A stretch of DNA of 39,327 nt from positions 1 to 39,327 of the forward strand of contig CACYCG010000194.1 of the NCBI GenBank assembly GCA_902772855.1, written 5' to 3'. The notes below the pieces were generated by a model. That model made no database searches. It was not told where the DNA came from and saw only the letters and a list, made by a program, of their open reading frames with translations. A program made the translations under genes and the position numbers. The stretch comes from an uncultured Ruminococcus sp. Lineage in GTDB: Bacteria > Bacillota > Clostridia > Oscillospirales > Acutalibacteraceae. This document shows, piece by piece, positions 190-23,811 of the stretch (positions within the stretch are counted from its first letter, which is position 1; each line of letters begins with the position of its first letter).

Positions 190-222
190 GAAAACACTGC
201 CGGACCTTGGTGACCCGGCAGT
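190..222 (-). terminator. Intrinsic terminator downstream of the AAA+ protease gene
   Basis: On the minus strand: ACTGCCGG-(11 nt loop)-CCGGCAGT, an 8-bp stem, followed by GTTTTCAT. It begins about 20 nt after the stop codon. Confidence 0.55.
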
Positions 223-242: not shown

Positions 243-3200
243 TTATTGTGCCCGATACAGTTCCTGAATTTCTTCAGAGGTCAAGTGGTTTTTCTGAAGA
301 AGAGCCTGTGTGATCGCATCAAAAACAGTGCGGTGCTGTTCGATGATGTCGATAGCATTCTGAAGTTCTTCCTTCATGATCCGGTTGACAAGGGAACGCA
401 CTTCGGAGGCCAGCGGTGCCGAAGAAAGTTCTTCACTGCTGAGCACATACATACCGAATTCCTCAGACATACCATAGGTGCAAAGCATCTTTTTGGCGAT
501 CGAGGTGGCGGACGCTAAATCGCTGGAAGCGCCGGTCGAGATACCGTCATCTGCTCCGTAGCAAACGATTTCGGCCGCTCTTCCGCCCAAAGCTACCCGG
601 ATCCGATTGGTCAGTTCTTGTTTGGTGTAGCCGCTCTTATCCTCATTGTCGTCATACTGCATATAGCCGCCAAAATCCGAACGGGATACGATGGTGACGT
701 AGGAAGGCTTTTCGCCGGCATGACAGCAGATAAGGGTATGACCGGCCTCATGACGAGCGGTTCGCAGCATGATCTCATCGCTCCATTTTTTCTTTTCGCC
801 GCTGTTATAGGTCTCCAGTGCATCATCGAGCAGTTTACCCGTGACGACACGGCTTCCCATGCGAAAAGCGGAGCGCATGGACAACTCCAGAACGGACTCT
901 AAATCGGCAAGGCTTTTGCCGACCGAACGAGCGGCTAAGTTGTCCGCATCCTGATCGGATACATCGAAAACAGCGTTGGCATCGAATTTCATTTGCAGAT
1001 ACCGGCGGCGTTCTTCTCTGGTGGGCAAATCGACATACATCTGGCGGTCAAATCGGCGGGACAGCGCCGGATCCAGCCGTTTTTTGCTCTTTTCCGATAC
1101 ATCGTAGTTCGTGGCTGCCAACACGAACACGGGCTTGGAAGGATCAGTAGAGAAACCGTCCATCTCCGCCAGGAGGGCAGTGAGGGTATCTTCTCCCCCA
1201 TGCAGATTCATTCCGGTCCTCTCCGAACCAATGGCATCAATTTCATCAATAAAGATAACGGACGGGGCGTATTTGCGGGCGGTGCGGAACAGCTTGTGGA
1301 CGGTTTCGGAGCCAAGACCTACCAGCGGCTGGAGGAATTGGTTTCCCTGTGCGCTGATAAACGTGGTTTCGGATTCGCCGGCCAGCGCTTTGGCCAGCAG
1401 GGTTTTACCGGTGCCGGGAGGACCGTACAGCAGCACGCCGCGAGGAGTACGCAGGCCGCTCATAGCATATTTGCGGGGGTTTTTCAGATAATCGGAGAAG
1501 TAGCGCAGTTCTTCTTTAACGTCATCAGCGCCGATGACATCGGAAAACTTGACGTCGGGACGGGAAAGGCTGCTGACGAGGCTATCGCCGTCTTCCGCTT
1601 CTATAGCCGTTTTGGTGTCGAGATTGATGATTTTGATCTCTGCTTCCAGTCCGGCTTCGGTTTCGGTGAGGATCTGAGCGGTTTCAAAGGTCAGCACATT
1701 ATTCCGGCTGGTCATAGCCAGCATTTCCTTCTCCTGATGGATGGCCATGGCGATCTCACGGAGTTTGTCCAGTTCATAGGGACCGACAATGTCCCTCACG
1801 CCCTGATGGAGCAGGGACACTCTTTCTTCCGGACTGTATTCGTGGGTCTTGGTCTGAAGAATATAAACGGGAACGGAGGGGTATTTTTCTGTCATCGTTT
1901 TGATCAGTTTTTTACCCAGCGATTCTACGTCTTTGATGCTCAGGTAATTATGGTGGTTTTCTTCCGTGCCGCATTCGATATCGACCAGCACGAATTTGAT
2001 GTCCTGCTCCACCAGCTGCTTTTCTACAACGGTCAGATCGTCTGTGTAGATGAAATGACAGTTGCAGGGGTCTTCCGCCCGGTTGAGAAGAGTTTTATCG
2101 GAAGAGAATACCAGCACATTTGTTTTTCCCTCTGGGGCAAACACCCGGTGCAGGGTCTCATCGGTCGGAAAATCCAGTGTGAAGTGGATCTGCTTGATGT
2201 CCTCGATCTTATGCGGAACGCTTTCCGAATCGACAATGCGGAAGAGTTCAAACAGTTCGCTGTTGAAGAAGGACTGCGCGCGGGCTTTAACGGTCCGGGC
2301 ATCGCATCCCTTCCCTTCTGCAAACAACAGAGCGGTACTGATTTCATCGGAGATCTGGACTGTGATGTTCAGATTGTCGGCCACTTCATAAGAATTGCGG
2401 TCGAGTTCCCGTTTGACGATCGTAGTCAGGCTTCCCACGTTCATTTTATTGAACATGACCACGTTTCCGGTCGCAAACCGGGAGCAGATGGCCGGCGGGA
2501 AGAACGGAATGCCGGTGAGAGGATTGATGTCCTTTTCCAGAGCATTCAGAATCACTTTTCGGGGCATGGAAGCGAAGTTTTCCTGCTCCGAGTTTTCATA
2601 GGCCTGACGGCCAGCGTTGGTGGTGAAAATCAGGATCGTATCCTTAAAAGAAACTTCCTGTTTGGTAAAATTATCTTTCACCCGTCCGGCATCGAGCATT
2701 TGCAGGAAAATGTGAATGACAGTGGTGTGGCATTTTTCGATTTCATCAAACAGCAGAACACAGCGGGGGTGTTCCTTGACAAAAGAAGTCAGGTGACCTT
2801 CTGCGGAGTTTTTGTACACTGTATCCGAGCCGCAGAACATTAAAGCTGCTTCCTTATCAGAATATTCGCTCATGTCAAAGCGCTGATACGGAAGCCCCAG
2901 CACTTCGGCGGCTGATTCTGCCAAAAAGGTTTTTCCAACGCCGGGAGGTCCGGCAAAAAGAAACGTGGCTCTGGGAGTGGTTCTGGTGCGGTCGGTCAAA
3001 TCCAGCATCAGCGACTGGAAATATCCAGAAGCAAAGGTGGAAATGGCGTTATTCTGACCGCAAAGACGATCCAGCAGGAAGTTGGTGATCTTCTTGGTCT
3101 TTTCAACATAGGAAGCGACTTTCTGGAGCCTTTGACAGCGAAGCTCCTCTAACTGCTCTTCCGTCATCTGTTCCGTCGGAATATCCGGCAGGCTTTCGGC

Positions 3201-3644
3201 TGTCTCTTCTTCTGCCGAAGGTTCCGAAGCGGAAGAAGCACTTTCCACATCGTTTTTCTGGAATAATTGTGAAATCAGATGTGTGGGAGAAGCTATGATA
3301 CAGGAAGCCACCGTATCGGCGGTGATTTCGGTGCGAGAGAGTTTTTTACTCATCGTCTCCGCTTCGTTCATCAGTTTCTGGAGCATGATCGAGTCCATAA
3401 AAGTTTCTTTGCGGGATTTGAGTATTTTTGAAAGCTTTCTTTCGGCCTTCATCGGATCGCACATTCCGCTGATGCAGTTTTTCATTTTGATCTGTTCCTC
3501 TGTCATATCCATGGCATCGGAATTGACAATGTAGTCCAGCATGGCCAGAAATAAGACTTCCACGCTGAGGCTGTTTCCTGTTTTTTTCGTTTCTGCCGTT
3601 TTCAGCAGAAGGTTCATAAATACACTGTTTGACAACGTTGCCAT
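243..3644 (-). CDS. Soluble multi-domain AAA+ protease (1133 aa): Clp_N-like N-domain + ClpA/B-D2-type AAA+ module + receiver-like domain + FtsH-type AAA+ module + M41 zinc metallopeptidase
   Basis: Uninterrupted 1133-codon ORF. ATG at 3644 has GGTGGG 6 nt upstream. First ATPase: Walker A GPPGVGKT (nt 2928-2951), Walker B VLLFDEIEK, sensor IFTTN. Second ATPase: Walker A GPPGTGKT (nt 1401-1424), Walker B VIFIDEIDA, second region of homology LDPALSRRFDR. Peptidase: HEAGH (nt 738-752), GGRAAE and TGASSDL..YGMS as in FtsH M41. No hydrophobic TM-length stretch anywhere. Confidence 0.88.
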   Translation of the reverse strand: MATLSNSVFMNLLLKTAETKKTGNSLSVEVLFLAMLDYIVNSDAMDMTEEQIKMKNCISGMCDPMKAERKLSKILKSRKETFMDSIMLQKLMNEAETMSKKLSRTEITADTVASCIIASPTHLISQLFQKNDVESASSASEPSAEEETAESLPDIPTEQMTEEQLEELRCQRLQKVASYVEKTKKITNFLLDRLCGQNNAISTFASGYFQSLMLDLTDRTRTTPRATFLFAGPPGVGKTFLAESAAEVLGLPYQRFDMSEYSDKEAALMFCGSDTVYKNSAEGHLTSFVKEHPRCVLLFDEIEKCHTTVIHIFLQMLDAGRVKDNFTKQEVSFKDTILIFTTNAGRQAYENSEQENFASMPRKVILNALEKDINPLTGIPFFPPAICSRFATGNVVMFNKMNVGSLTTIVKRELDRNSYEVADNLNITVQISDEISTALLFAEGKGCDARTVKARAQSFFNSELFELFRIVDSESVPHKIEDIKQIHFTLDFPTDETLHRVFAPEGKTNVLVFSSDKTLLNRAEDPCNCHFIYTDDLTVVEKQLVEQDIKFVLVDIECGTEENHHNYLSIKDVESLGKKLIKTMTEKYPSVPVYILQTKTHEYSPEERVSLLHQGVRDIVGPYELDKLREIAMAIHQEKEMLAMTSRNNVLTFETAQILTETEAGLEAEIKIINLDTKTAIEAEDGDSLVSSLSRPDVKFSDVIGADDVKEELRYFSDYLKNPRKYAMSGLRTPRGVLLYGPPGTGKTLLAKALAGESETTFISAQGNQFLQPLVGLGSETVHKLFRTARKYAPSVIFIDEIDAIGSERTGMNLHGGEDTLTALLAEMDGFSTDPSKPVFVLAATNYDVSEKSKKRLDPALSRRFDRQMYVDLPTREERRRYLQMKFDANAVFDVSDQDADNLAARSVGKSLADLESVLELSMRSAFRMGSRVVTGKLLDDALETYNSGEKKKWSDEIMLRTARHEAGHTLICCHAGEKPSYVTIVSRSDFGGYMQYDDNEDKSGYTKQELTNRIRVALGGRAAEIVCYGADDGISTGASSDLASATSIAKKMLCTYGMSEEFGMYVLSSEELSSAPLASEVRSLVNRIMKEELQNAIDIIEQHRTVFDAITQALLQKNHLTSEEIQELYRAQ

Positions 3645-3716
3645 TCAAATCCCACCTTTTTTATTGATTCCCACAGGCATTTTTGGGAACTCTTTCCATT
3701 TTTCTTCTTCTTTTTT

Positions 3717-3768: not shown

Positions 3769-4260
3769 TCAATCGTCTTTGTGGAACCATTCCAGGAACT
3801 CTTCCAGCGTGCTGATGCCTTTATTCAGGGCAAACAGACGATAGCTGTAATTGTCCACAGTATTAGCAGACACACGGACCAGGTAATCCAGAAGATCCTT
3901 GGTGATGGTCGTTCCGGTAAAGCTGGTGTTGATGCGGAAGAAAACGGTGCCGTCGCTCATGTCCAGATCGAAGGAGCCGTTGAGCAGGCTGTAATTGATA
4001 GCAGTCAGAGCGATCATGCCGTCCATGATCTTATCTTCTCTGAAATTGAAGGTGAACGGAGAGAGAATCGAGATCAGTTCCTGCTTGGGTTTGATGCGCC
4101 AAACGAACTTCATCGGGAAATCGTCTCCCGTTACGCTGAAAGTGATTTTCAGATCCTGTCGGTTAGGGTCGAATTTTTTGATGCCGACTTCGGGAAGCAG
4201 ATCCACCACTGCGTCGAAGATCTGGTTTGCTTTTCTGAGTTCAGAATCGGTGATAGCCAT
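3769..4260 (-). CDS. YbjN-family (type III secretion chaperone-like fold) protein, 163 aa
   Basis: ORF with GGAGGT RBS 8 nt upstream of the ATG. Small, acidic, no TM or signal peptide. The pattern LKITFSV..FVWRIKP..LISILSP..ALTAINYSLLNGSFDLD..GTVFFRINTSF is typical of YbjN-domain proteins. Assignment is by eye only. Confidence 0.6.
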   Translation of the reverse strand: MAITDSELRKANQIFDAVVDLLPEVGIKKFDPNRQDLKITFSVTGDDFPMKFVWRIKPKQELISILSPFTFNFREDKIMDGMIALTAINYSLLNGSFDLDMSDGTVFFRINTSFTGTTITKDLLDYLVRVSANTVDNYSYRLFALNKGISTLEEFLEWFHKDD

Positions 4261-4322: not shown

Positions 4323-4351
4323 ATGATACCATATCTGAAAATGTTTGTCAA
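4323..4351 (-). promoter_or_regulatory. Sigma-A promoter of the YbjN-like gene
   Basis: Minus strand: TTGACA (4351-4346), 17-nt spacer, TGG-TATCAT (extended -10, 4328-4323). Confidence 0.7.
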
Positions 4352-7577: not shown

Positions 7578-8018
7578 ATGACTCTTATTGCGTCAAAATC
7601 GTGGGAAAGTTATTGCTCGCTATGCCGAGCATTGGAACGAATGGAGATCCGATATGAAAAAAATGATAAGGAATTGTCGGTCAAATGCGCAGTCAGCGGG
7701 TGTGCGCTGGAACAGAAATACCGCATTTCTATTGATCCTTCCAAAATGCTGATGACGCTGTTTGCGCCGCTGCCTCTTCCAGTGACAGATGAAACAGCGG
7801 GCGATTTAGCGATTGCGGCTTCTATGGTGAATCATTCGATCCGGGATGGATGTTTGTGCATTGATTTTCGGGAAGGGCTCATGTATCTGAGACTGACCGC
7901 CAGCTTTTATGAATCGGCTTTCAGTGGGACGGTGTTTGAATATATGCTCTCCACAGCGGCAGATATTTTAGATGAATATTTTCCGAAATTGTCTCAGTTG
8001 GCTTCTTTGGTAAAATAG
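7578..8018 (+). CDS. Second YbjN-family (chaperone-like) protein, 146 aa
   Basis: GGGAGGAG RBS. The secondary-structure-like pattern is collinear with the 3769-4260 product: LSVKCAVSG..YRISIDP..LMTLFAP..AASMVNHSIRDGCLCIDF..LMYLRLTASF. No TM segment. Confidence 0.55.
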   Translation: MTLIASKSWESYCSLCRALERMEIRYEKNDKELSVKCAVSGCALEQKYRISIDPSKMLMTLFAPLPLPVTDETAGDLAIAASMVNHSIRDGCLCIDFREGLMYLRLTASFYESAFSGTVFEYMLSTAADILDEYFPKLSQLASLVK

Positions 8019-9009: not shown

Positions 9010-9095
9010 GTATTACAGCAAGTTATGCCATAATTTGCTGGATTGTCTTGTTTTCAAGCCAATAGTATTGTGAAGAAATGGAGGATATGCAATTT

Positions 9096-11342
9096 ATGAG
9101 ATGTAAAAAATGTGCTTCTCTCCTGAAAGAAGGGGATACTGTCTGTCCGGTTTGCGGAGCGGCTGTATCGGAAGAACCTGCTTCTTCCGGTGATACTTGC
9201 TCTAAATGCGGCGCTGAGCTGAAACCCGGTGCAAAGTTCTGCCCGAAATGCGGCGAAAAAACGGCTGCTGCACCCGCTTTTCCGCAGCCCTCTGCTGACA
9301 GTGTCAAAAGCGATTCGTTTATCTCTTTGAGCAAAGAACCGGAAACTCCGGAAAAAACGGATTCCGTTCGTGCTGATGTCTGCCCCAAATGCGCAGCGGA
9401 ACTGAAACCCGGCGCAAAGTTCTGCCCGAAATGCGGCGCCAAAACAGAAGCTGCGGGTGCGGCTCCTGCACCGGTCCCGGCTCCTGCTGCGGGTGGAAAT
9501 GCCTGCGCTAAATGTGGAACGGAACTGAAACCCGGCGCAAAGTTCTGCCCGAAATGCGGCGCTAAAACGGAAGCGGCGGCTTCCGCTTCCGCTCCTGCTC
9601 CGGTCCCGGCTCCTGCTGCGGGTGGAAATGTCTGCTCCAAATGCGCAGCGGAACTGAGACCCGGCGCAAAGTTCTGTCCGAAATGCGGCACAAAAACGGA
9701 AGCGGCGGCTTCCGCTCCGACCTCTGCTCCGACTCCTGCTCCTGCAGCAGCATCTGTTTCCGGAGATACGAAGGTCTGCCCCAAATGTCACGGCGTCATG
9801 AAGCCGGGCACAAAGGTTTGTGCGGTTTGCGGGTATAAGCTCGGCGATCCCCTGAAGCCGGATCTGGACGCTACGGCTCCGATCCCGGAGGGGAAGGATT
9901 CCTTCTCTTCTCCCGCCCCGGCTCCCACTCCTGCTCCGGCCGCTTCGGCTGTTCCGAAAAAACCGCTGAGCCCCCTCCCCTTTATTCTGATCGGTATTGC
10001 ACTGGTTGTGATCGTGGGAATTATTATTCTTGTCAATGTGATCTCCGGTCTTCTGAATAAGCCTCAGTCGATCGACCTGGACAAATATGTCACGGTGGAA
10101 TTTGAGGGTTATACCGGCTCCGGCACAGCTACTGTAAGCTTTGATGAGGACAGCTTCTCCTCTGATTGGAAATCCAAACTGAGCTACAAAAAGGAAGCCC
10201 GTCAGTTCAAACACGCCGGGGAGATTGAAAGCGGAGACCCCACCACGCTGATTGCTTATTATGCTAAAAAGAGCCTGAAGCTGGATAAGTCGGAGGAACT
10301 TTCCAACGGGGATGTTGTGAAAGCAAAATGGAAGATCTCCGACACGGCCAAGAAAGATATTCTCGAATTTCTGAACTGTGAAGTGACCGGTTCCAATCCG
10401 GAGTTTACCGTGGAAGGTCTGAAAGAAGTGGAAGCGGTGGATCTTTTCGCAGGTATTTCCGTAACCTTTGAGGGTACCGCTCCTAATGGATATGCCTATG
10501 TCAAAACCTCTTCTTCCGATTATTATTTCAGCTACTCAATCGACAAGGAAAGCGGTCTGAGCAACGGTGACAAGGTCGTTGTGGAACTGAAAAGCCCCTA
10601 TTCTTCCTACGACAGTCTGGAAAGCTACATGATCGAAGAATACAAGAAGAAGCCGGCTGCTCTGAAGAAAGAATATGAAGTCACTGGTCTGAAGGTAAGA
10701 ATGGCCAAGTTGGAACAAGTTTCCGATTCGATCCTGACCGATGTGAAGAGCGAAGTGGAGTCCTTTATTGACAGCGATACCAGCAAAACCGGTGTGACCC
10801 TGAACTCGAAAGAGTATCTCGGTCTGGTGCTGGGAGCGAAAACGGAATCCAGCTCCTATGATTTCAATCGTCTGTATGCTGTGTATAAAGTGACGGTTTC
10901 CTTGAAGGACGATTCTTCTAAGAAGCCGGTGGAGCTGACCTATTATACGGCAGAGTATTTTGAGGACCTGGTGCTGACCAGTGATGGTTCTCTGGAATCC
11001 TCTTATCTCAGCGGCTATCATAACTATGATACCGTTCGTCCCTCTACGAAGAATTATTACAGCTTCTATGGTTATGAAACCTATGATAAACTGTATGAAG
11101 TCATTACCAAGAAAACCGGATATTCCTACGAAACCAATATAACGGCTGAAGCGTCCGAACCGGAAGAGGAAAGCAAGACGGAAGAAAGTTCCGAAACTTC
11201 CGGAGAAGGTTCTGATGTTTCTAAAACGGAGAGCGACGCTTCCGGAGATTCTTCCGAGAAACCCGAAAGTGCGCCTGAATCCGGTGAACCGGCGGAAGGC
11301 TCTGAAAAAGTATCCGAAGTAGAAACTTCCGAAACAGAATGA
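9096..11342 (+). CDS. Single-pass membrane protein with six N-terminal (cytoplasmic) zinc ribbons, Ala/Pro linkers, one TM helix, a beta-rich extracytoplasmic region and an acidic Ser/Glu tail
   Basis: Six CxxC-N10-CxxC units. TM helix LPFILIGIALVVIVGIIILVNVISGLL at about nt 9966-10056. The start at 9096 has GGAGGA 10 nt upstream. The track start at 9078 is the alternative. Confidence 0.8.
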   Translation: MRCKKCASLLKEGDTVCPVCGAAVSEEPASSGDTCSKCGAELKPGAKFCPKCGEKTAAAPAFPQPSADSVKSDSFISLSKEPETPEKTDSVRADVCPKCAAELKPGAKFCPKCGAKTEAAGAAPAPVPAPAAGGNACAKCGTELKPGAKFCPKCGAKTEAAASASAPAPVPAPAAGGNVCSKCAAELRPGAKFCPKCGTKTEAAASAPTSAPTPAPAAASVSGDTKVCPKCHGVMKPGTKVCAVCGYKLGDPLKPDLDATAPIPEGKDSFSSPAPAPTPAPAASAVPKKPLSPLPFILIGIALVVIVGIIILVNVISGLLNKPQSIDLDKYVTVEFEGYTGSGTATVSFDEDSFSSDWKSKLSYKKEARQFKHAGEIESGDPTTLIAYYAKKSLKLDKSEELSNGDVVKAKWKISDTAKKDILEFLNCEVTGSNPEFTVEGLKEVEAVDLFAGISVTFEGTAPNGYAYVKTSSSDYYFSYSIDKESGLSNGDKVVVELKSPYSSYDSLESYMIEEYKKKPAALKKEYEVTGLKVRMAKLEQVSDSILTDVKSEVESFIDSDTSKTGVTLNSKEYLGLVLGAKTESSSYDFNRLYAVYKVTVSLKDDSSKKPVELTYYTAEYFEDLVLTSDGSLESSYLSGYHNYDTVRPSTKNYYSFYGYETYDKLYEVITKKTGYSYETNITAEASEPEEESKTEESSETSGEGSDVSKTESDASGDSSEKPESAPESGEPAEGSEKVSEVETSETE
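9381..9700 (+). repeat. In-frame tandem DNA repeat (about 123-129 bp unit, about 2.6 copies) encoding ribbon-plus-linker modules
   Basis: Ribbon units start at 9381, 9504 and 9633. A run of more than 40 nt, GAACTGAAACCCGGCGCAAAGTTCTGCCCGAAATGCGGCGC, is identical in the first two. The linker GCTCCTGC.CCGGTCCCGGCTCCTGCTGCGGGTGGAAATG.CTGC is nearly identical at 9466-9506 and 9592-9635. Confidence 0.85.
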
Positions 11343-12987: not shown

Positions 12988-13037
12988 CTTCTCAGAATAA
13001 GTATGGATCGGTTCCGGGCAGGAAAGGGAGGTTGACG

Positions 13038-16000
13038 ATGAGCGGTATCGTGTTTTTTGATCTGGAAACAGATCCTTCCGGAAAAACCTTGCAGTGCATA
13101 CACGGTCTTCGGGAAGATGGCGCTGTTTTTGCATCCGATTCTCTAAAGGAATGGCTTCGGTTTGCACAGGGAGCTTCCTTCTGGTGCGGATTTGACATTC
13201 GGGAGAAAGTTTCTCTTTTGTCCGAATGTCCTGATTTTTTGAATGATCCGGAAGTGGTCGATGTCATGCTGCTGATGCCGCTCTTTCTTTCTGCCCGGCA
13301 GGCTTCCCGTTTCTGGGAAGAGGAACAGGGAGAAAGGGTTTTGTCGGGAGAAGAAAAAGTCCGACGGATCCGAGAACTGTTCGAGCAGGAGAAAACAGCT
13401 CAGAAAGCCCTTTCTTCCGGATGGACGGACATCCTTTCTTCCTTAGTGTATCGGGAGCGTTGGGCAAAGTGTTTCTTTGAGAAAAGACATCGGATGGTGC
13501 TTCCCTTTGTGCTGTCTGCGAAGGTTCAGGAGGAGCTGAAGGGGCAACTATGCGAGAATGTGAATATTGCTTCCTTTCTGCTTCGCTATCCGGTAGAGTC
13601 GGCTTATGCGCTGGCTTCCATAGAGCGTCGGGAAATGCTCCCTGTCTGGCTTTCCCGTTACTATCCGATGGCGGAAGAGTTGGTTCGGATCCTGCAGCAA
13701 ACACCCTGCCGGAAAGGATGTGCCTACTGCAGCAGTCGGTGGGATATTCATGCGGCATTGAAGCGCTTTTTTGGCTATGATTCTTTTTTGACATACCGGG
13801 GCGAGCCGCTTCAGGAAAGGGCTGTGCAAAAAGCCGTCTGTGGGAAATCAATTGCCGCTGTTTTTCCGACAGGGGGAGGAAAATCGCTGACCTTTCAATT
13901 GCCTGCCCTGATGGCCGGACAGATCGAGCAGGGATTGACGGTAGTGATCTCTCCCCTGCTTTCTTTGATGAAGGATCAGGTCGATCAGCTTGTGCAGAGA
14001 GGCATTACGGAGGCGGAAGCTCTGAACAGCCTGCAGGATCCTTTTGAACGCTCGAAAACGATTCGCAGATTATTGGACGGAGAGGCTTCGATCGTCTATC
14101 TATCGCCGGAATCTCTTCGAAGCGCTTCTGTGGAAAGGATCCTGCTGCAGCGCAGAGTGGTCCGGTTTGTTATTGATGAAGCGCATTGTTTTTCGGCCTG
14201 GGGGCAGGATTTCCGGGTGGACTATTTGTATATCGGAGATTTTTTGAAAGAGCTTCAGCAGAAAAAAAGGCTGCGTGACCCAATCCCTGTATCCTGTTTT
14301 ACCGCTACCGCCAAACCGGAGGTGCTCGAGGATATCTGCCGGTATTTTCAGGAGAAAACCGGCTGTAGCATGGAGATCCTGAGTGCCCCTTCCGATCGGG
14401 AGAATTTGCATTACCATGTGCTGAAAACCGGGAAATATGAGGAAAAATATAACAGTCTCCGGCACCTTCTGACCTTTCATGTCTGTCCGACCATTGTGTA
14501 TGTTTCTACTACGAAAGCGGCGGAGAAGCTGGCAGAGTCTTTGACAAGAGATGGATTTCCTTCTCTTCCCTATCACGGAAAAATGAGATCGGAGCAAAAG
14601 ATCGCTCATCAGGAAGCGTTTATCCGCAACGAAGTGCGGGTGATGGTGGCCACTTCGGCGTTCGGGATGGGGGTGGATAAAAAGGATGTTTTGATGACGG
14701 TCCATTTTGATATTCCGGATTCGCCGGAAAACTTTGTGCAGGAATCCGGGCGGGCCGGACGGGATCCCGCTGTGCAGGCAGATTGTTATCTGCTGTACAG
14801 CAGGGATGATATTCGCCGTCATTTCATGCGGCTGCAGCGCTCCAAAGTGAATATCAGCGAAATCAAGCAAATCTTCAAAGCCATCAAAGCGCTGACAAAA
14901 GAAGATCGGCACTTATCCTGTTCTCCGGAAGAACTGGCTTCCGAAGCCGGATGGGATCCGTTTGAGCCCCATATGGAAATGCACCTGAAAACCGCTTTGG
15001 CCTCTTTAGAGCACAGCGGCTATATCCGGAGGGATCCGAACCGGATGCAGGTGTATGCTTCGGCTTTGCAGGTAGGTTCTATTACCGAAGCGATCGGAAA
15101 GATCCGTTCTTCTCAGTTGATGAGCGACAGCGAGAAAACGATATGCATCAAATTGACGGCCGCTTTGATCTCCGCTCATAACACGTCTATCGTGCGCCAC
15201 AGTCAGCTTCGTTCCCGGGTGGATTGTCTGGCGCAGCAGATCGGCGTGGAGAAAAAACAAATTATCTCCTGCATCAGCCTGCTGCGTCAGGAAGGAATTC
15301 TGGCCGATGAACGGGATCTATATGCCGGCATCGTGATCAAAGGAGGAAAAAACAAGTCTGGAGCGATTTTTGAGGATTTTGCTGCTTTGGAATGCTTTTT
15401 GCTTGAACACATGGAAGAAAAGGAAAAAGAAATCTCCATAAAGGAATTGAATGAAATGGCTCAGCAGGAGGGTCTGTCATTCTGCACCGTCAAAAAGCTG
15501 CGGCAGTTGTTCCATTTTCTGCTTCTTGCCGGGGATCTTCGCCGGACGGGATTTGAGCATCATGGCTATTATTCCCTGACGCCTGCTATTTCCTTATCTG
15601 TTTTGCGGGAAAAAACCAAACGGCGCCATGCATTTGCCCGCTATCTTTTGTCAAGACTCTTTGTATCCGCCCAAAAGCAGTTTTCTCCTTCTCGTTATCT
15701 GCGGACCATCAGTTTTTCTCTTGTGACCGTCTGCGGGGAGTTTTCCCATGAACACCCGGAACTGTGCGGGGAAAAGCCCTTTTCTATCCGGGAGACCGAG
15801 GAGGCAATCTGGTATTTATCCCGGATTCGTTCCATGCGCTCCATCGGAAATTTTTTAATCCGGTATCATAGTCTTGAAATCGAACGGCTGGTGGAGGATT
15901 CCCGGATCCAATATAAAGCGGAGGACTATCGTCCTCTTCAGGAGTATTATACGCAAAAAAACAGACAGATCCACTTTATCGCCGAATGGGCTGAACGGGT

Positions 16001-17834
16001 GCTGCGGGATCCTTCTGTCTCCCAAACGTATCTTCATGATTATTTTCATCTTCGTTCCGGGAAGTTTATTAAAAAGTATTTCAAAGGAGAACGTCTGACG
16101 GAAATCTATCGGCAGATCACCCCGGATATGTATCAGGAGCTGTTTGCTTCTTTGTCCCCTCTGCAGACCCGTGTGCTGCAGGACGACACATCCCGGTGCA
16201 TTGTGATCGCAGCCGGACCCGGAAGCGGAAAGACCCGGGTGCTGGTGCATAAGCTGGCCTGTTTGCTGATGCTGGAAGACGTCCGCCCGGAGCAGCTTCT
16301 GATGCTGACGTTTTCCCGTGCGGCTGCAACCGAATTCAAGCTGCGGCTGATTGAATTGGTGGGAAGCCTTGCCTATGGAGTGACGGTAAAGACGTTTCAT
16401 TCGTACAGCTTTGATCTGTTGGGGCGCATCGGAAGTCTGAACCGGTCGGAGCATATTGTGAAAGCGGCTGCTCAGGCGATCCGGGACGGAGAAGCGGAAA
16501 ACAGAAAATGCGCCTTGTCGGTTCTGGTTCTGGATGAAGCACAGGACATGGATGAAGAGGAATATACGCTGGTGGAGGCTTTGATGGCTCAGAATGAAGA
16601 GATGAAGGTGATCGCCGTTGGGGACGATGACCAGAATATTTACGGATTCCGGGGAGCGGATGCCCGTTATATGAAGCAGCTTCTTTCCTCTTCAAAGGCG
16701 GTCCAATATGAAATGACGGATAATTACCGCAGTGAAAAAAGCATTGTATCCCTGGCGGAAGCGTTTGTATCCACTTTCCGGAATCGGATGAAAACCCGTC
16801 CGCTGCATTCGGTTTCGGGCCTGAAGGGTCGGACGGTGATCGTGGAGCATACTTCTCCCCTGTTTTTAACCGCTGTGGCGCAGGCGACGGCGGATCAGCC
16901 GGGAAATCAGAGCATAGGTATCCTGACCGAAACCAATGAAGAAGCCTTACAGATGGTCTGCCTGCTGAGAAAACTCGGGATCCGGGCGCAGCTTTTACGC
17001 TCAGCCGGAGGCTTCTCCATGTTTGATGTAGCGGAGGTACGGTTTTTGCTCAAAGCGCTTGACTATGACAGCGATGAACCGATGATTTCCGAAACCCAAT
17101 GGCAGCAGGCCGGAGAGCGTTTGCAGAAGGTGTATGCGGACAGCCGGTGTCTGCCGAATTGTCTTTGTATGATGGAAAAGTTTTCCTCCCTGTATCCTCA
17201 GCGGTATCGGTCGGATTTAGAGGAGTTTCTGAAGGAGTCCCGATTTGAAGATTTTTATGAAGATCATTCGCTTTGTGTAACGGTTTCTACCATTCATAAG
17301 GCCAAGGGACGGGAGTATGATACTGTGTTTCTGACCTGGCGGGGAGATCGGGCCGATCAGGAAGAAAAGAAGCGGCTGCTGTATGTGGGCATGACCCGCG
17401 CCAAAAAACAATTGTTTATCCATTATGAAACGGGTACGGTACAATGGCCGGCGTGCAAAGGGGTCGAGCGGGTGCGGGACGACAGCCATCCGGAAGAACC
17501 GGAGGAACTGTGGCTGGATATGACGTTCCGGGATGTCTTTCTGGATTTTTTCCGGGATAAGAAAAGGCGTATTGTACGGCTGCACAGCGGAGCCTTGCTT
17601 GCCGTAGAAGGAGAGTATCTTTGCACAGAACCTTCCGGAGAAAGGGTGGCGAAGTTTTCTCGGGCGTTTTCTGCGGAATTGGAGTCGTTCCGGCAAAAAG
17701 GCTATGAGCCGGTGGAAGCCCGGGTCGCTTTTGTGGCCGCTTGGCGTCCGAAGGGTGAAACAGAGGAAATAGCGGTGTTGCTGCCGGAATTGAAATTGAA
17801 AAAAAACGAGCCGAGAACACGCAATTTATTGTAG
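13038..17834 (+). CDS. Giant fusion helicase (1598 aa): degenerate DnaQ-like N-terminus + complete RecQ-type SF2 core + winged-helix-like middle region + complete UvrD/Rep-type SF1 core
   Basis: ATG at 13038 with GGGAGG 6 nt upstream. RecQ motifs: FPTGGGKS (nt 13866-13886), DEAH (14175-14186), CFTATA, ATSAFGMGVDK, QESGRAGRD. UvrD motifs: GPGSGKT (16215-16235), LTFSRAAA, LDEAQD (16533-16547), VGDDDQNIYGFRGA, DNYRS, TIHKAKGREYD, LYVGMTRAK. Confidence 0.9.
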   Translation: MSGIVFFDLETDPSGKTLQCIHGLREDGAVFASDSLKEWLRFAQGASFWCGFDIREKVSLLSECPDFLNDPEVVDVMLLMPLFLSARQASRFWEEEQGERVLSGEEKVRRIRELFEQEKTAQKALSSGWTDILSSLVYRERWAKCFFEKRHRMVLPFVLSAKVQEELKGQLCENVNIASFLLRYPVESAYALASIERREMLPVWLSRYYPMAEELVRILQQTPCRKGCAYCSSRWDIHAALKRFFGYDSFLTYRGEPLQERAVQKAVCGKSIAAVFPTGGGKSLTFQLPALMAGQIEQGLTVVISPLLSLMKDQVDQLVQRGITEAEALNSLQDPFERSKTIRRLLDGEASIVYLSPESLRSASVERILLQRRVVRFVIDEAHCFSAWGQDFRVDYLYIGDFLKELQQKKRLRDPIPVSCFTATAKPEVLEDICRYFQEKTGCSMEILSAPSDRENLHYHVLKTGKYEEKYNSLRHLLTFHVCPTIVYVSTTKAAEKLAESLTRDGFPSLPYHGKMRSEQKIAHQEAFIRNEVRVMVATSAFGMGVDKKDVLMTVHFDIPDSPENFVQESGRAGRDPAVQADCYLLYSRDDIRRHFMRLQRSKVNISEIKQIFKAIKALTKEDRHLSCSPEELASEAGWDPFEPHMEMHLKTALASLEHSGYIRRDPNRMQVYASALQVGSITEAIGKIRSSQLMSDSEKTICIKLTAALISAHNTSIVRHSQLRSRVDCLAQQIGVEKKQIISCISLLRQEGILADERDLYAGIVIKGGKNKSGAIFEDFAALECFLLEHMEEKEKEISIKELNEMAQQEGLSFCTVKKLRQLFHFLLLAGDLRRTGFEHHGYYSLTPAISLSVLREKTKRRHAFARYLLSRLFVSAQKQFSPSRYLRTISFSLVTVCGEFSHEHPELCGEKPFSIRETEEAIWYLSRIRSMRSIGNFLIRYHSLEIERLVEDSRIQYKAEDYRPLQEYYTQKNRQIHFIAEWAERVLRDPSVSQTYLHDYFHLRSGKFIKKYFKGERLTEIYRQITPDMYQELFASLSPLQTRVLQDDTSRCIVIAAGPGSGKTRVLVHKLACLLMLEDVRPEQLLMLTFSRAAATEFKLRLIELVGSLAYGVTVKTFHSYSFDLLGRIGSLNRSEHIVKAAAQAIRDGEAENRKCALSVLVLDEAQDMDEEEYTLVEALMAQNEEMKVIAVGDDDQNIYGFRGADARYMKQLLSSSKAVQYEMTDNYRSEKSIVSLAEAFVSTFRNRMKTRPLHSVSGLKGRTVIVEHTSPLFLTAVAQATADQPGNQSIGILTETNEEALQMVCLLRKLGIRAQLLRSAGGFSMFDVAEVRFLLKALDYDSDEPMISETQWQQAGERLQKVYADSRCLPNCLCMMEKFSSLYPQRYRSDLEEFLKESRFEDFYEDHSLCVTVSTIHKAKGREYDTVFLTWRGDRADQEEKKRLLYVGMTRAKKQLFIHYETGTVQWPACKGVERVRDDSHPEEPEELWLDMTFRDVFLDFFRDKKRRIVRLHSGALLAVEGEYLCTEPSGERVAKFSRAFSAELESFRQKGYEPVEARVAFVAAWRPKGETEEIAVLLPELKLKKNEPRTRNLL

Positions 17835-21329: not shown

Positions 21330-22610
21330 ATGATCAAAGAAGTACAATGCCCGAAATGTCATGCCCATTTTTCATGGGATACTTCTTCTGCAGTAGCAGC
21401 GTGCACAAACTGCGGAACAAAGTATCAACTGCGTTCCCGCAGCAGTCAGCAGCCGGTTCTGATGCCGCCGCAAGGCAGAGGATGCGTGGATTATGTAACC
21501 GTTCCCAACGACAGCACTGTGGGGAATCGTCCTCTGATCAAAACCTACATCCCCAAAAACTGGACATATCAATGCGCTCCCGTATCCGATCGGTTTGATC
21601 TGGTCAGCAATCCCCTGGTCCTTTCCATTACGTTTCTGGCGCCGGATCAATCGGCTAAAATAGTATTTGTGGGAGAATCGTTCTATAAGCATATTGACTA
21701 TATGCCCCAGACAGCGGCTTTGCAGAATCGTCTGGAGGATTCCACCACCGGACGGAATCCGACTTTTTTCCGTTTGAAAAGCTATCATACCGCTGCGGAA
21801 TACTGCGATGCCTTGGCGCAGAGCTGCGGGCTGTCTCAGCTTTCTCTGGTGGATGAAAGCCGCCCGGAAGCCACTGAACGAGAGCGGCAGGAACGAATTA
21901 TTCAGAACTTTTTGCGAAACGGTTTTTTGAACGCTTCCGGCGAATGGGCAGGCAGAACTTATTCGGGCGTATCCCCGGAAGGACAAAAATTGAAGGTGTA
22001 TGCAGAAACGCGGGTAACGCAGCTTATGCGGATCGCTGCTGTACAGTCGCTGCAGATGCAGCCCATGGGAAGTGTGTTCGGAATGCGGTATATGCCGCAA
22101 ATGGTGCAGCAGCAGGTGGAAGAGTATTTTTGGGATACTTCCTATGAACTGGTGCTTTTAGCAGCAGAAGCCGCTTTTGACAAGGCTTTTCAGGAACTGA
22201 AGCAACTGGATAAAACACTGGATTATCTGCCCGGAATGCAGGATGTTCGTGCAGAATTGATCTCTCTGGCACAGAATGCGCAGATGAATATGGCACAGGT
22301 CCGGTCGGAATCGTTTGCGCGGCAGTCTCGGATTATTGCGGACACGAATGCCTACACGTCCAATATCCAGCATCAGATGATGGCGGATAATGCTGCTTCC
22401 CATGATTGGGTGGCCAGAATGCAGTCGGAAATGATCCGGGAAGTGAACAGTTACGCTGTGCCGGGAGGCGGAGTGGCGGAGGCTTCCACCCGTTATGACC
22501 ATGTGTATCAAAGTACCAGAGATCCGAATGTTTTCGGACTCCAGCAGGGAGATGCCTTTGAGTTTGGAGTAGATTTTGTGGAACTTCCCCGGACAAACGG
22601 GAATTATTAA
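21330..22610 (+). CDS. Hypothetical cytoplasmic protein with an N-terminal zinc ribbon, 426 aa
   Basis: AGGAGG RBS 9 nt upstream. CPKC-N15-CTNC ribbon in the first 30 aa. No TM segment. The remainder is unassignable by eye. Confidence 0.7.
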   Translation: MIKEVQCPKCHAHFSWDTSSAVAACTNCGTKYQLRSRSSQQPVLMPPQGRGCVDYVTVPNDSTVGNRPLIKTYIPKNWTYQCAPVSDRFDLVSNPLVLSITFLAPDQSAKIVFVGESFYKHIDYMPQTAALQNRLEDSTTGRNPTFFRLKSYHTAAEYCDALAQSCGLSQLSLVDESRPEATERERQERIIQNFLRNGFLNASGEWAGRTYSGVSPEGQKLKVYAETRVTQLMRIAAVQSLQMQPMGSVFGMRYMPQMVQQQVEEYFWDTSYELVLLAAEAAFDKAFQELKQLDKTLDYLPGMQDVRAELISLAQNAQMNMAQVRSESFARQSRIIADTNAYTSNIQHQMMADNAASHDWVARMQSEMIREVNSYAVPGGGVAEASTRYDHVYQSTRDPNVFGLQQGDAFEFGVDFVELPRTNGNY

Positions 22611-22632
22611 CCAAATGAGAAAGGATGAGCAA

Positions 22633-23811
22633 ATGATGAAAGCGAAAAACAGACTGGCTATTCTCATGGCGGCGGTATGTCTGCTGCCGATGCTGTCTGC
22701 CTGCAGTCAGACGGGGACAACCACCGGAAAGGAAGGTGGAGAATCCTCCGTCAGCAGCAAGGAGACCAGCAAAAAAACCCAAGAAACAGAGTCTTCCGGC
22801 GATACAAGCTCTAAAACGGAAGAAAGCAAAGAAGAAAAGGATAAGGAAGGCACCAAAACAGTGGAAGATGAATCTTCTGAAGAAGCTTCTTCCGGCGCAG
22901 GCAGTTCCGGGCTTCCAGTGGCAGAACCTACGGTCAGAATGGCAGAGTGGAATTCAGTCAATTGGACAAAATATGAAAGCGCCTATTTCACCCTTTCCAT
23001 CCCCGATGGATGGGTGGTGGAATGGAACGGGGATGTGAACGGCCTGTTCTGGAGAGCCAGAAGCACAGACGGAAAAGAAGGGATCTTCTATCAGGATCAC
23101 CGCTATTGCGCCAAAGATGCCAATGCAGCCGCTATGACAGGAAATACCTTTGTGATGCCGACCGGTACGGTGCAGAACTATTTTGATATTATGTTTTCCG
23201 GACATGTAGAGTATTTTGACGTTAAAAACTCCTGTGTTCCGGCCAACAGGGATCTTCTCCAGGCCATTCGTCCCAGAGCAGTGCTGACGGATTATCAATC
23301 TATGTATGCTCTCTTTAAGGACAGCGATGTCGGAGAAGGAGAAGGCATTTATTCAGCCCTTATCTATGATACCGGAGATGTCTGGAACGGCGGTATCAAC
23401 TATGGGATGTGGGAAGTGGATTTCACCAGCGCCGAATATGCACAGGTCGGTCAATTAGTCAACTGGAAGCCGGTGTTTGCTCAAATTGCTTCTTCCTTTG
23501 CCTATACAGAGTTTTATATGCAGCAGTTCCGGGCAGCTATGGGGTCTACTTCAGACGTTCTTCCGAACAATGATAATGATGTGGTGATGGAGGCGTTTGA
23601 AGAAAGAAGCAAATCCGATACGATCATTCAGGAAAAACGTTCCGATATGATCGGTGAATACGAACGGGTGTACGATAATAACGACGGACAGATCTACCGG
23701 GCTTACAATGGGTTCTTAGAGGATATAGGAGGATCGGAGCAATCCCGATATACCTCGATAACAGACTCCCAGTATGCTGACGGCTTTGTAGGGTGGATCG
23801 ATAAAGATTAA
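22633..23811 (+). CDS. Hypothetical lipoprotein with a Ser/Glu/Lys-rich linker, 392 aa
   Basis: Signal peptide plus lipobox LSAC (Cys codon 22702-22704). AAGGA RBS 7 nt before the ATG at 22633. The track start at 22576 would overlap the upstream gene. Confidence 0.75.
   Translation: MMKAKNRLAILMAAVCLLPMLSACSQTGTTTGKEGGESSVSSKETSKKTQETESSGDTSSKTEESKEEKDKEGTKTVEDESSEEASSGAGSSGLPVAEPTVRMAEWNSVNWTKYESAYFTLSIPDGWVVEWNGDVNGLFWRARSTDGKEGIFYQDHRYCAKDANAAAMTGNTFVMPTGTVQNYFDIMFSGHVEYFDVKNSCVPANRDLLQAIRPRAVLTDYQSMYALFKDSDVGEGEGIYSALIYDTGDVWNGGINYGMWEVDFTSAEYAQVGQLVNWKPVFAQIASSFAYTEFYMQQFRAAMGSTSDVLPNNDNDVVMEAFEERSKSDTIIQEKRSDMIGEYERVYDNNDGQIYRAYNGFLEDIGGSEQSRYTSITDSQYADGFVGWIDKD

Follow-up and report, generated by a model that had tools for sequence, protein, structure and literature searches.

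Contig CACYCG010000194.1 of an uncultured Ruminococcus sp. (assembly GCA_902772855.1), whose full 39,327 nucleotides are called the window here, encodes near one end a protein that combines a Clp-like unfoldase with an FtsH-like protease. It is probably a soluble, self-contained AAA+ zinc metalloprotease that forms a two-tiered hexamer and carries out regulated, signal-dependent proteolysis; we give this reading a probability of about 0.6. By definition, the FtsH protease is anchored in the membrane and has a single ring, and a soluble version of it would be a new design among AAA+ proteases. The design would be marked by an active Clp-D2-type ring that precedes the FtsH ring, in the reverse of the ClpA/B/C order, and by a regulatory receiver fold placed between the two motors.

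The uninterrupted open reading frame (ORF) of 1133 amino acids at 243..3644 that had been claimed in a sequence-only reading of this DNA is confirmed; it lies on the minus strand and begins with ATG. The domain order and the motifs quoted in that reading are all present in the order given. The start codon is credible because Met1 is invariant in the family alignment and because AGGTGG lies 7 nt 5' of the ATG. The parts of the gene and its product are as follows:

3652..3657, minus strand: Shine-Dalgarno sequence AGGTGG of the protease gene, 7 nt ahead of the start codon (direct reading of the letters)
3261..3644, minus strand: Clp-N-like helical domain, residues 1-128 (fold match and family profile; fast-evolving)
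3117..3260, minus strand: acidic linker, residues 129-176 (13 D/E against 4 K/R in 48 residues)
2235..3116, minus strand: ClpA/B-D2-type (HCLR-clade) AAA+ module with large and small subdomains, residues 177-470 (Pfam AAA_2, NCBIfam ClpA/ClpB)
1770..2234, minus strand: extra strand and degenerate CheY-like receiver-fold domain, residues 471-625 (AlphaFold2 and Foldseek, profile against PDB)
1575..1769, minus strand: long helix and beta-hairpin leading into the FtsH module, residues 626-690 (AlphaFold2 secondary structure)
795..1574, minus strand: FtsH-type classical AAA+ module, residues 691-950 (Pfam AAA, FtsH_fam, alignment with 4ww0)
243..794, minus strand: M41 zinc metallopeptidase domain, residues 951-1133, and stop codon (Pfam Peptidase_M41, 1.2e-36)

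Both motors and the protease are recognised by family profiles, which bears out the ClpA/B-D2-type module and the complete FtsH cassette of the sequence-only reading. Pfam places AAA_2 at residues 224-369 (2.7e-36), AAA at 737-872 (4.3e-48) and Peptidase_M41 at 961-1129. The NCBIfam ClpA profile aligns at residues 180-440, equivalent to ClpA positions 445-690 of 734, and the ClpB profile at 178-439; the D2 small subdomain is supported indirectly by these equivalog alignments, which extend to residues 439-440. FtsH_fam aligns at residues 694-1126 (profile positions 155-598) with 360.7 bits, and the cytosolic portion of FtsH from Aquifex (4ww0) aligns from end to end with residues 694-1131 (E 5e-79). 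One NCBIfam PAN equivalog alignment begins at residue 637, within the helix-and-hairpin segment that the sequence-only reading had not described.

The first motor has the Walker A motif GPPGVGKT, the pore-loop residue Y277, Walker B at DE300-301, sensor-1 N343, the Arg finger R389 and sensor-2 R450. The FtsH module has Walker A GPPGTGKT, the pore loop NQFLQPLVGLG (with L774), Walker B at DE800-801, sensor-1 N846 and RR863-864 in the second region of homology. In the M41 domain, HEAGH lies at 965-969, while E1025 and D1042 are the candidates for the third zinc ligand.

Is the enzyme likely to work? In an alignment of 120 relatives, the Walker A and B motifs, sensor-1 and Arg fingers of both ATPase modules, and sensor-2 of the first, are invariant or nearly so. 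The same census finds H965, E966, H969 and E1025 of the peptidase invariant and D1042 in 119 of the 120, and the first pore-loop tyrosine, Y277, is kept in 118. This near-invariance of the catalytic motifs argues for a working rather than a decayed enzyme, in agreement with the earlier view. That view had also pointed to the loss of the aromatic residue from the FtsH pore loop. The residue is indeed Leu in the window protein, but this is a minority variant: position 774 is Tyr in 87 relatives, Phe in 25, Leu in seven and His in one, so that an aromatic is present in 112 of 120 and absent only from the window protein and seven scattered relatives.

The rest of the protein is less uniform. Identity within the family is 20% (median) for the N-domain and 61% for both motors, a pattern of divergence that fits a putative specificity domain mounted on a conserved engine. 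The linker behind the N-domain is as acidic as had been stated, and is gappy and poorly conserved in the family alignment. The protein does not appear to be anchored in the membrane: in a simple hydropathy test over its whole length, the highest 19-residue Kyte-Doolittle mean is 1.28, and the absence of a transmembrane-length hydrophobic segment, as first reported, therefore holds.

The Pfam families that had been put forward for the protein divide into two groups: AAA_2, AAA and Peptidase_M41 are found, but Clp_N, ClpB_D2-small and Response_reg are not, even when the isolated segments 1-194, 361-494 and 480-703 are searched against Pfam at E<=10. What, then, are the N-terminal domain and the insert between the motors? 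Family alignments of residues 1-135 and 470-700 were used as profiles against PDB, and the two regions were modelled with AlphaFold2. For residues 1-135 the top PDB match is the N-domain of ClpA, a weak one (E 0.0037). The model of the domain has a predicted local distance difference test (pLDDT) score of 92.9, and the top 28 Foldseek matches are all N-domains of Clp/Hsp100 proteins (ClpA, ClpB, Hsp104, ClpV and ClpC), with template modelling (TM) scores of about 0.6-0.68 and E-values of 0.008-1. The Clp-N-like assignment, a putative one, thus stands on the predicted fold, where the match is clear, and not on Pfam.

The same can be said of the receiver-like module. The top PDB match of the 470-700 profile is the receiver domain of ArcA (E 0.083). 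The model (pLDDT 81) gives 97 Foldseek matches at E<1e-3, receiver domains make up all but one of the top 50, and the predicted fold is clearly that of a receiver. The insert resembles receiver domains in its (beta/alpha)5 fold, with a target-normalised TM score of about 0.7, and in the Asp at the phosphoacceptor position (D555, Asp in 116 of the 120 relatives). It differs from them in the phosphorylation pocket, which is degenerate: the positions of the acidic pair after beta-1 are Ala/Ser and Ser/Asp, and there is no Lys after beta-5. It is because the acidic pair and the Lys are missing that the insert is probably a pseudo-receiver. A further difference is the longer beta3-alpha3 loop, which holds a family-specific motif, LNxEDVxS (568-575). 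Position 598, which answers to the Thr/Ser of the pocket, is Thr or Ser in 63 of 120 relatives, and EE606-607, S610, G615 and R617 are also conserved. Neither Pfam nor PADLOC detects a CARF or SAVED domain on the protein; the alpha/beta insert resembles receivers, not CARF domains.

Could so unusual an architecture, which is all that speaks for such an origin, be an assembly chimera or the decaying fusion of two genes? This is vanishingly improbable. The same full-length architecture is found in more than 100 homologs of 1120-1250 residues (44-57% identity), on many independent contigs from independent samples, and the catalytic motifs are all essentially invariant. The nearest relative of full length (P0002) is 57% identical, and an identical fragment of 1003 residues is present in another assembly (P0001); exact look-up of the full-length window protein returned no record. 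A search of related genomes with the AAA_2-module alignment as profile showed that at least 299 species-level genomes, mostly metagenome-assembled genomes of gut and rumen Clostridia, encode a relative. Misassembly and pseudogene status were rejected on these grounds, and the question of whether the full-length architecture is conserved is answered.

The best 80 relatives come nearly all from uncultured gut or rumen Clostridia, with Oscillospiraceae, Acutalibacteraceae, Ruminococcus, Faecousia, Coprococcus, Acetatifactor and Christensenellaceae among them, and the gene is intact in about 75 of these loci. When 1.84 billion representatives were searched with a profile of the receiver-plus-hairpin module, 272 clusters at 50% identity scored E<=1e-10, and in nearly all of them the module lies at about residues 450-730 of a protein of 1100-1250 residues. 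Long variants carry N-terminal fusions to a Ser/Thr kinase (in at least one case with TPR as well), to NADAR or to an RNase H1 hybrid-binding domain; one variant has an N-terminal extension of about 600 residues that resembles several tandem Clp-N-like repeats and has no Pfam match. Each fusion cluster that was looked up occurs on at least two contigs, except for a single-member kinase fusion (P0211).

The window protein represents a new architectural variant among AAA+ proteases and founds a sizeable uncharacterised family. Although such proteins are common in gut and rumen Clostridia, those that carry a name at all are annotated only as "AAA family ATPase". In agreement with the initial impression, no description of this architecture was found in the literature or in curated families, and the gene is not listed in a catalogue of type III accessory genes (PMC6546367) or in one of rare CRISPR-Cas systems (PMC10910872).

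How does the protein compare with the two families from which its parts are drawn? The match of residues 694-1131 to the cytosolic region of FtsH includes a classical AAA+ module with the second region of homology, an HExxH site and candidates for the third zinc ligand. By contrast, the two transmembrane helices and the periplasmic domain of FtsH are missing, the N-terminus instead has a Clp-N-like predicted fold, and some 690 additional N-terminal residues carry a second motor. The window ortholog also has Leu at the position of the pore-loop aromatic, and its score of 360.7 bits compares with an equivalog cut-off of 600 (NCBIfam TIGR01241). A review of FtsH describes the whole family as anchored in the membrane.

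The likeness to ClpA, ClpB and ClpC lies in the predicted fold of the N-domain and in the D2-type AAA_2 module with its Tyr pore loop, Arg finger and sensor-2. Here, too, there are differences. The window protein has neither a D1 ring nor an M-domain, and the acidic linker alone occupies residues 129-176. The order of clades is inverted, an HCLR-type ring preceding a classical one; the protease is part of the same chain, whereas ClpP is a separate protein; and no Pfam match to Clp_N or ClpB_D2-small is obtained. In its working, the protein would resemble an FtsH joined to a Clp unfoldase, yet it belongs to neither family: the missing anchor and an equivalog score below threshold set it apart from FtsH, and the missing D1 ring and inverted order of clades from Hsp100.

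Two further sets of proteins were compared. The FtsH ternary conflict systems (Kaur et al. 2020, PMC7159879) share tandem AAA+ modules, an FtsH-type second module and a conflict-system context. However, both of their modules are FtsH-type, the first is inactive, and their partners are MoxR and vWA proteins, whereas the first module of the window family is of the ClpA/B-D2 type and active, and M41 is fused. A match to these systems was rejected on account of the AAA_2-type first module with intact Walker motifs, and no MoxR-vWA pair is found among the recurrent neighbours of the family. In PADLOC, residues 78-344 match DolB (Dodola; 9.5e-27) and residues 79-352 match PDC-M37B. These profiles differ from the window protein in being about 375-520 positions long with no FtsH/M41 half; the match covers the Clp-like part only.

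These comparisons suggest how the enzyme might operate. It is most likely a hexamer with two stacked ATPase tiers. The Clp-N-like domain at the top would dock substrates or adaptors, and the ClpA/B-D2-type ring would grip the polypeptide through its conserved Tyr pore loop and begin to unfold it. The FtsH-type ring would then take over the chain and feed it to the fused M41 chamber, to be cut at the HEAGH zinc site. The degenerate receiver and the helix-hairpin between the motors would probably serve as a regulatory or coupling element. YbjN proteins have a type III secretion chaperone fold, and a pair of YbjN-like proteins encoded near the protease gene may act as its cofactor, be it an adaptor, an anti-adaptor or a substrate chaperone.

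The sites and genes around the protease gene in the window that bear on this proposal are:

3769..4260, minus strand: YbjN-like gene directly upstream of the protease gene, 163 aa, apparently co-transcribed with it (Pfam YbjN 1.4e-6; family hidden Markov model (HMM) 3.3e-51)
7578..8018, plus strand: second YbjN-like paralog, 146 aa (neighbour-family HMM 4.1e-43)
4323..4351, minus strand: sigma-70-like promoter match before the YbjN-like gene, TTGACA-17-TATCAT with TG (11 of 12 consensus positions)
196..222, minus strand: terminator-like hairpin with an 11-bp stem, 7 GC pairs and a T-rich tail (consensus scan only)

With a promoter match in front, a gap of 124 nt between the YbjN-like gene (4260..3769) and the protease gene, and a terminator-like hairpin 21 nt after the protease stop codon, the two genes look like a two-gene operon. 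The promoter match comes from a consensus scan only, and the number of such sites in the region is not above that in shuffled sequences. The second YbjN-like paralog lies 3.9 kb upstream of the protease on the opposite strand and has no Pfam match. A decarboxylase gene and folC lie between the two YbjN-like genes of the window, which have opposite orientations; in the 30 related loci with both paralogs they are usually side by side. The wider surroundings are those of a Firmicute chromosome with housekeeping genes for PolC, Lon, FolC, an Orn/Lys/Arg decarboxylase and a Y-family polymerase.

What accompanies the protease in other genomes? ORFs around about 75 loci were clustered and then searched with HMMs. 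Of these, 39 have YbjN-like genes, 30 of them in two copies, and the upstream YbjN gene is therefore conserved, as had been asked of it. RyR-domain proteins are present in 45 loci. Where both flanks are available (58 loci), both partners occur in 16, YbjN-like genes only in 9, RyR only in 23 and neither in 10; the locus of the closest full-length relative has both.

Most RyR partners are proteins of about 600-780 residues with N-terminal transmembrane helices, a Rossmann-like middle part with GxGxxG and a C-terminal RyR domain (for example, L001:9557-11635 and L084:4283-6124). They are usually encoded 10-60 nt downstream of the protease (median 48 nt in the raw neighbour cluster). Others are soluble, RyR-only proteins of 99 residues. 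The RyR assignment is based on profile matches to RyR Repeat12 and a Bacteroides RyR-like protein in PDB, and the ligand residues His, Trp, His and Asp are conserved; against Pfam, the membrane partner gives only a sub-threshold RyR match. According to a preprint (PMC13232231), RyR-domain proteins of phages bind and cleave cyclic ADP-ribose immune signals, and the RyR fold is a nucleotide-recognition module. Because the fold recognises nucleotides, it is plausible, by analogy, that the RyR partners are sensors.

A more specific relationship might be envisaged, in which the protease is a dedicated extractor and regulator of the RyR-domain membrane protein and degrades this potentially toxic effector to restrain or reset it. 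The transmembrane-Rossmann-RyR protein is encoded directly downstream of the protease in many loci, including that of the closest relative, and dislocation of membrane proteins is a known activity of FtsH enzymes (reviewed in PMC9020784). We nevertheless regard this as quite improbable, given the 9 of 58 loci with YbjN-like genes only and the 10 with neither partner, the soluble nature of the 99-residue partners, and a window locus that ends in a terminator-like hairpin with no RyR gene in the 242 nt available.

Other partners belong to signalling and defence. A CARF-PD-(D/E)xK nuclease adjoins the protease in 18 loci (PADLOC CARF4, 2.6e-24) and is the sole PADLOC match among the partners; the YbjN-like, RyR-membrane, TerB-like and transglutaminase proteins are unmatched there. 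Type III cas genes (Cas6, Cas10/Cmr2, Cmr3 and RAMPs) are adjacent on the downstream side in L086/L087 and L050, where the order is protease, YbjN pair, Cas6, Cas10, and then Cmr3 and/or RAMP genes (L086:155-10159 and L050:5854-16241). The association is partial in two further loci: Cas6 adjoins the protease in L037, and in L042 (3045-14169) a double-TIR protein is encoded directly downstream, with Cas6, a CRISPR array of 25 repeats and RT-Cas1 (reverse transcriptase-Cas1) a few kb further on. Most loci, the window among them, show no such adjacency. The neighbours in L001 are FHA, kinase-TIR and TIR-STAND proteins.

In eight loci, the YbjN pair and the protease are preceded by a sigma-like gene and an anti-sigma-like gene (L019:2028-3213, L074:7006-8137 and six others). 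The sole PDB profile match of the 300-residue sigma-like protein is an extracytoplasmic function (ECF) sigma factor at E 0.24, and the anti-sigma-like protein, of 90 residues, has a conserved HxxxCxxC as in zinc anti-sigma factors; assignment of the pair as sigma and anti-sigma factors is tentative. TerB-like proteins, M10-like proteins and giant transmembrane-transglutaminase proteins also recur. The last are of about 1730 residues, with a C-terminal transglutaminase-like domain, and their genes lie just ahead of the protease gene (L036:2031-7235 and eight other loci).

Might the enzyme instead be a general cytosolic disaggregase-protease, a housekeeping quality-control factor that degrades misfolded or aggregated proteins with no dedicated signal? 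Such a role would be consistent with the chromosomal, housekeeping context of the window gene, the presence of the family in at least 299 species genomes, and the resemblance of the Clp-N domain and D2-type motor to ClpA/B/C. An entry in the reference list of PMC9503650 also points to E. coli YbjN as a proposed protein stabiliser. On the other hand, a canonical Lon is already encoded in the same window and the N-domain evolves fast. The protease also has a built-in regulatory receiver fold, sensor-type fusions at the N-terminus of some variants, and modular partners from signalling and defence (RyR, CARF nuclease, TIR, type III cas and sigma/anti-sigma-like pairs). Bulk quality control is therefore unlikely. 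Regulated, signal-dependent proteolysis is the more likely role because the partners to which the module is linked across the family are of signal-sensing and defence types.

The assignment to regulated proteolysis has to be set against several observations. No CARF or SAVED sensor can be recognised in the protein itself, and the 230-residue insert between the motors could hinder their coaxial stacking. The Leu in the FtsH pore loop of the window ortholog may weaken the grip of the second ring. Only housekeeping-type neighbours, including PolC, Lon, FolC and the decarboxylase, are seen in the window, which has no RyR, CARF or cas gene, the downstream view being limited to 242 nt that hold the terminator-like hairpin. 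Finally, 10 of the 58 loci with both flanks have neither a YbjN-like nor an RyR-domain gene.

A bolder extension of signal-dependent proteolysis, which we put forward tentatively and consider possible though not probable, is that nucleotide-based immune or stress signalling in Firmicutes has in this family a hitherto unrecognised protease arm driven by ATP. As such, the family would share operons with type III CRISPR-Cas genes and with genes for CARF nucleases, TIR proteins and RyR-domain membrane proteins. The protease might reset the response by destroying activated effectors; alternatively, it might trigger the response by degrading an inhibitor, for example the HxxxCxxC anti-sigma-like protein. 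The YbjN-like pair would be the adaptor and the pseudo-receiver the switch, and the window copy would represent a minimal two-gene version.

A parallel is offered by CalpL-CalpT-CalpS and other CRISPR-linked proteases. The likeness is that of a protease beside type III CRISPR-Cas/CARF genes in some loci and beside sigma/anti-sigma-like genes in others. However, CalpL belongs to the Lon-type proteases, carries a SAVED sensor and lacks an ATPase motor, whereas the window protein has two AAA+ motors, an M41 site and neither CARF nor SAVED. Moreover, the association is confined to a minority of the family loci and is unseen in the window. The set of partners and fusions offers testable leads on the roles of bacterial RyR and YbjN proteins, and on whether ATP-dependent proteolysis controls nucleotide-based immunity.

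Some further features of the window may be mentioned. Just past the terminator-like hairpin, positions 1-161 contain two 32-nt direct repeats with 81% identity and a distance of 117 nt between them. The 13-mer GCCAGCGTGACGC follows both without a mismatch, and the second copy reaches the window edge. The repeats have no Rfam match and their spacing is not CRISPR-like; Rfam scans of the whole window and of positions 1-400 gave no matches. On the plus strand, a 754-residue ORF at 9078-11342 has at least four zinc-ribbon units in its N-terminal part, and two overlapping ORFs of 426 and 411 residues at 21330-23811 have no Pfam match. A 1600-residue ORF at 13032-17834, also on the plus strand, joins a DEAD/Helicase_C (superfamily 2) helicase to a UvrD-type (superfamily 1) helicase. 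Long ORFs are mostly on the plus strand at 6-25 kb and on the minus strand at 25-39 kb (including those for Lon and PolC), and the cumulative GC skew has its maximum near 25 kb.

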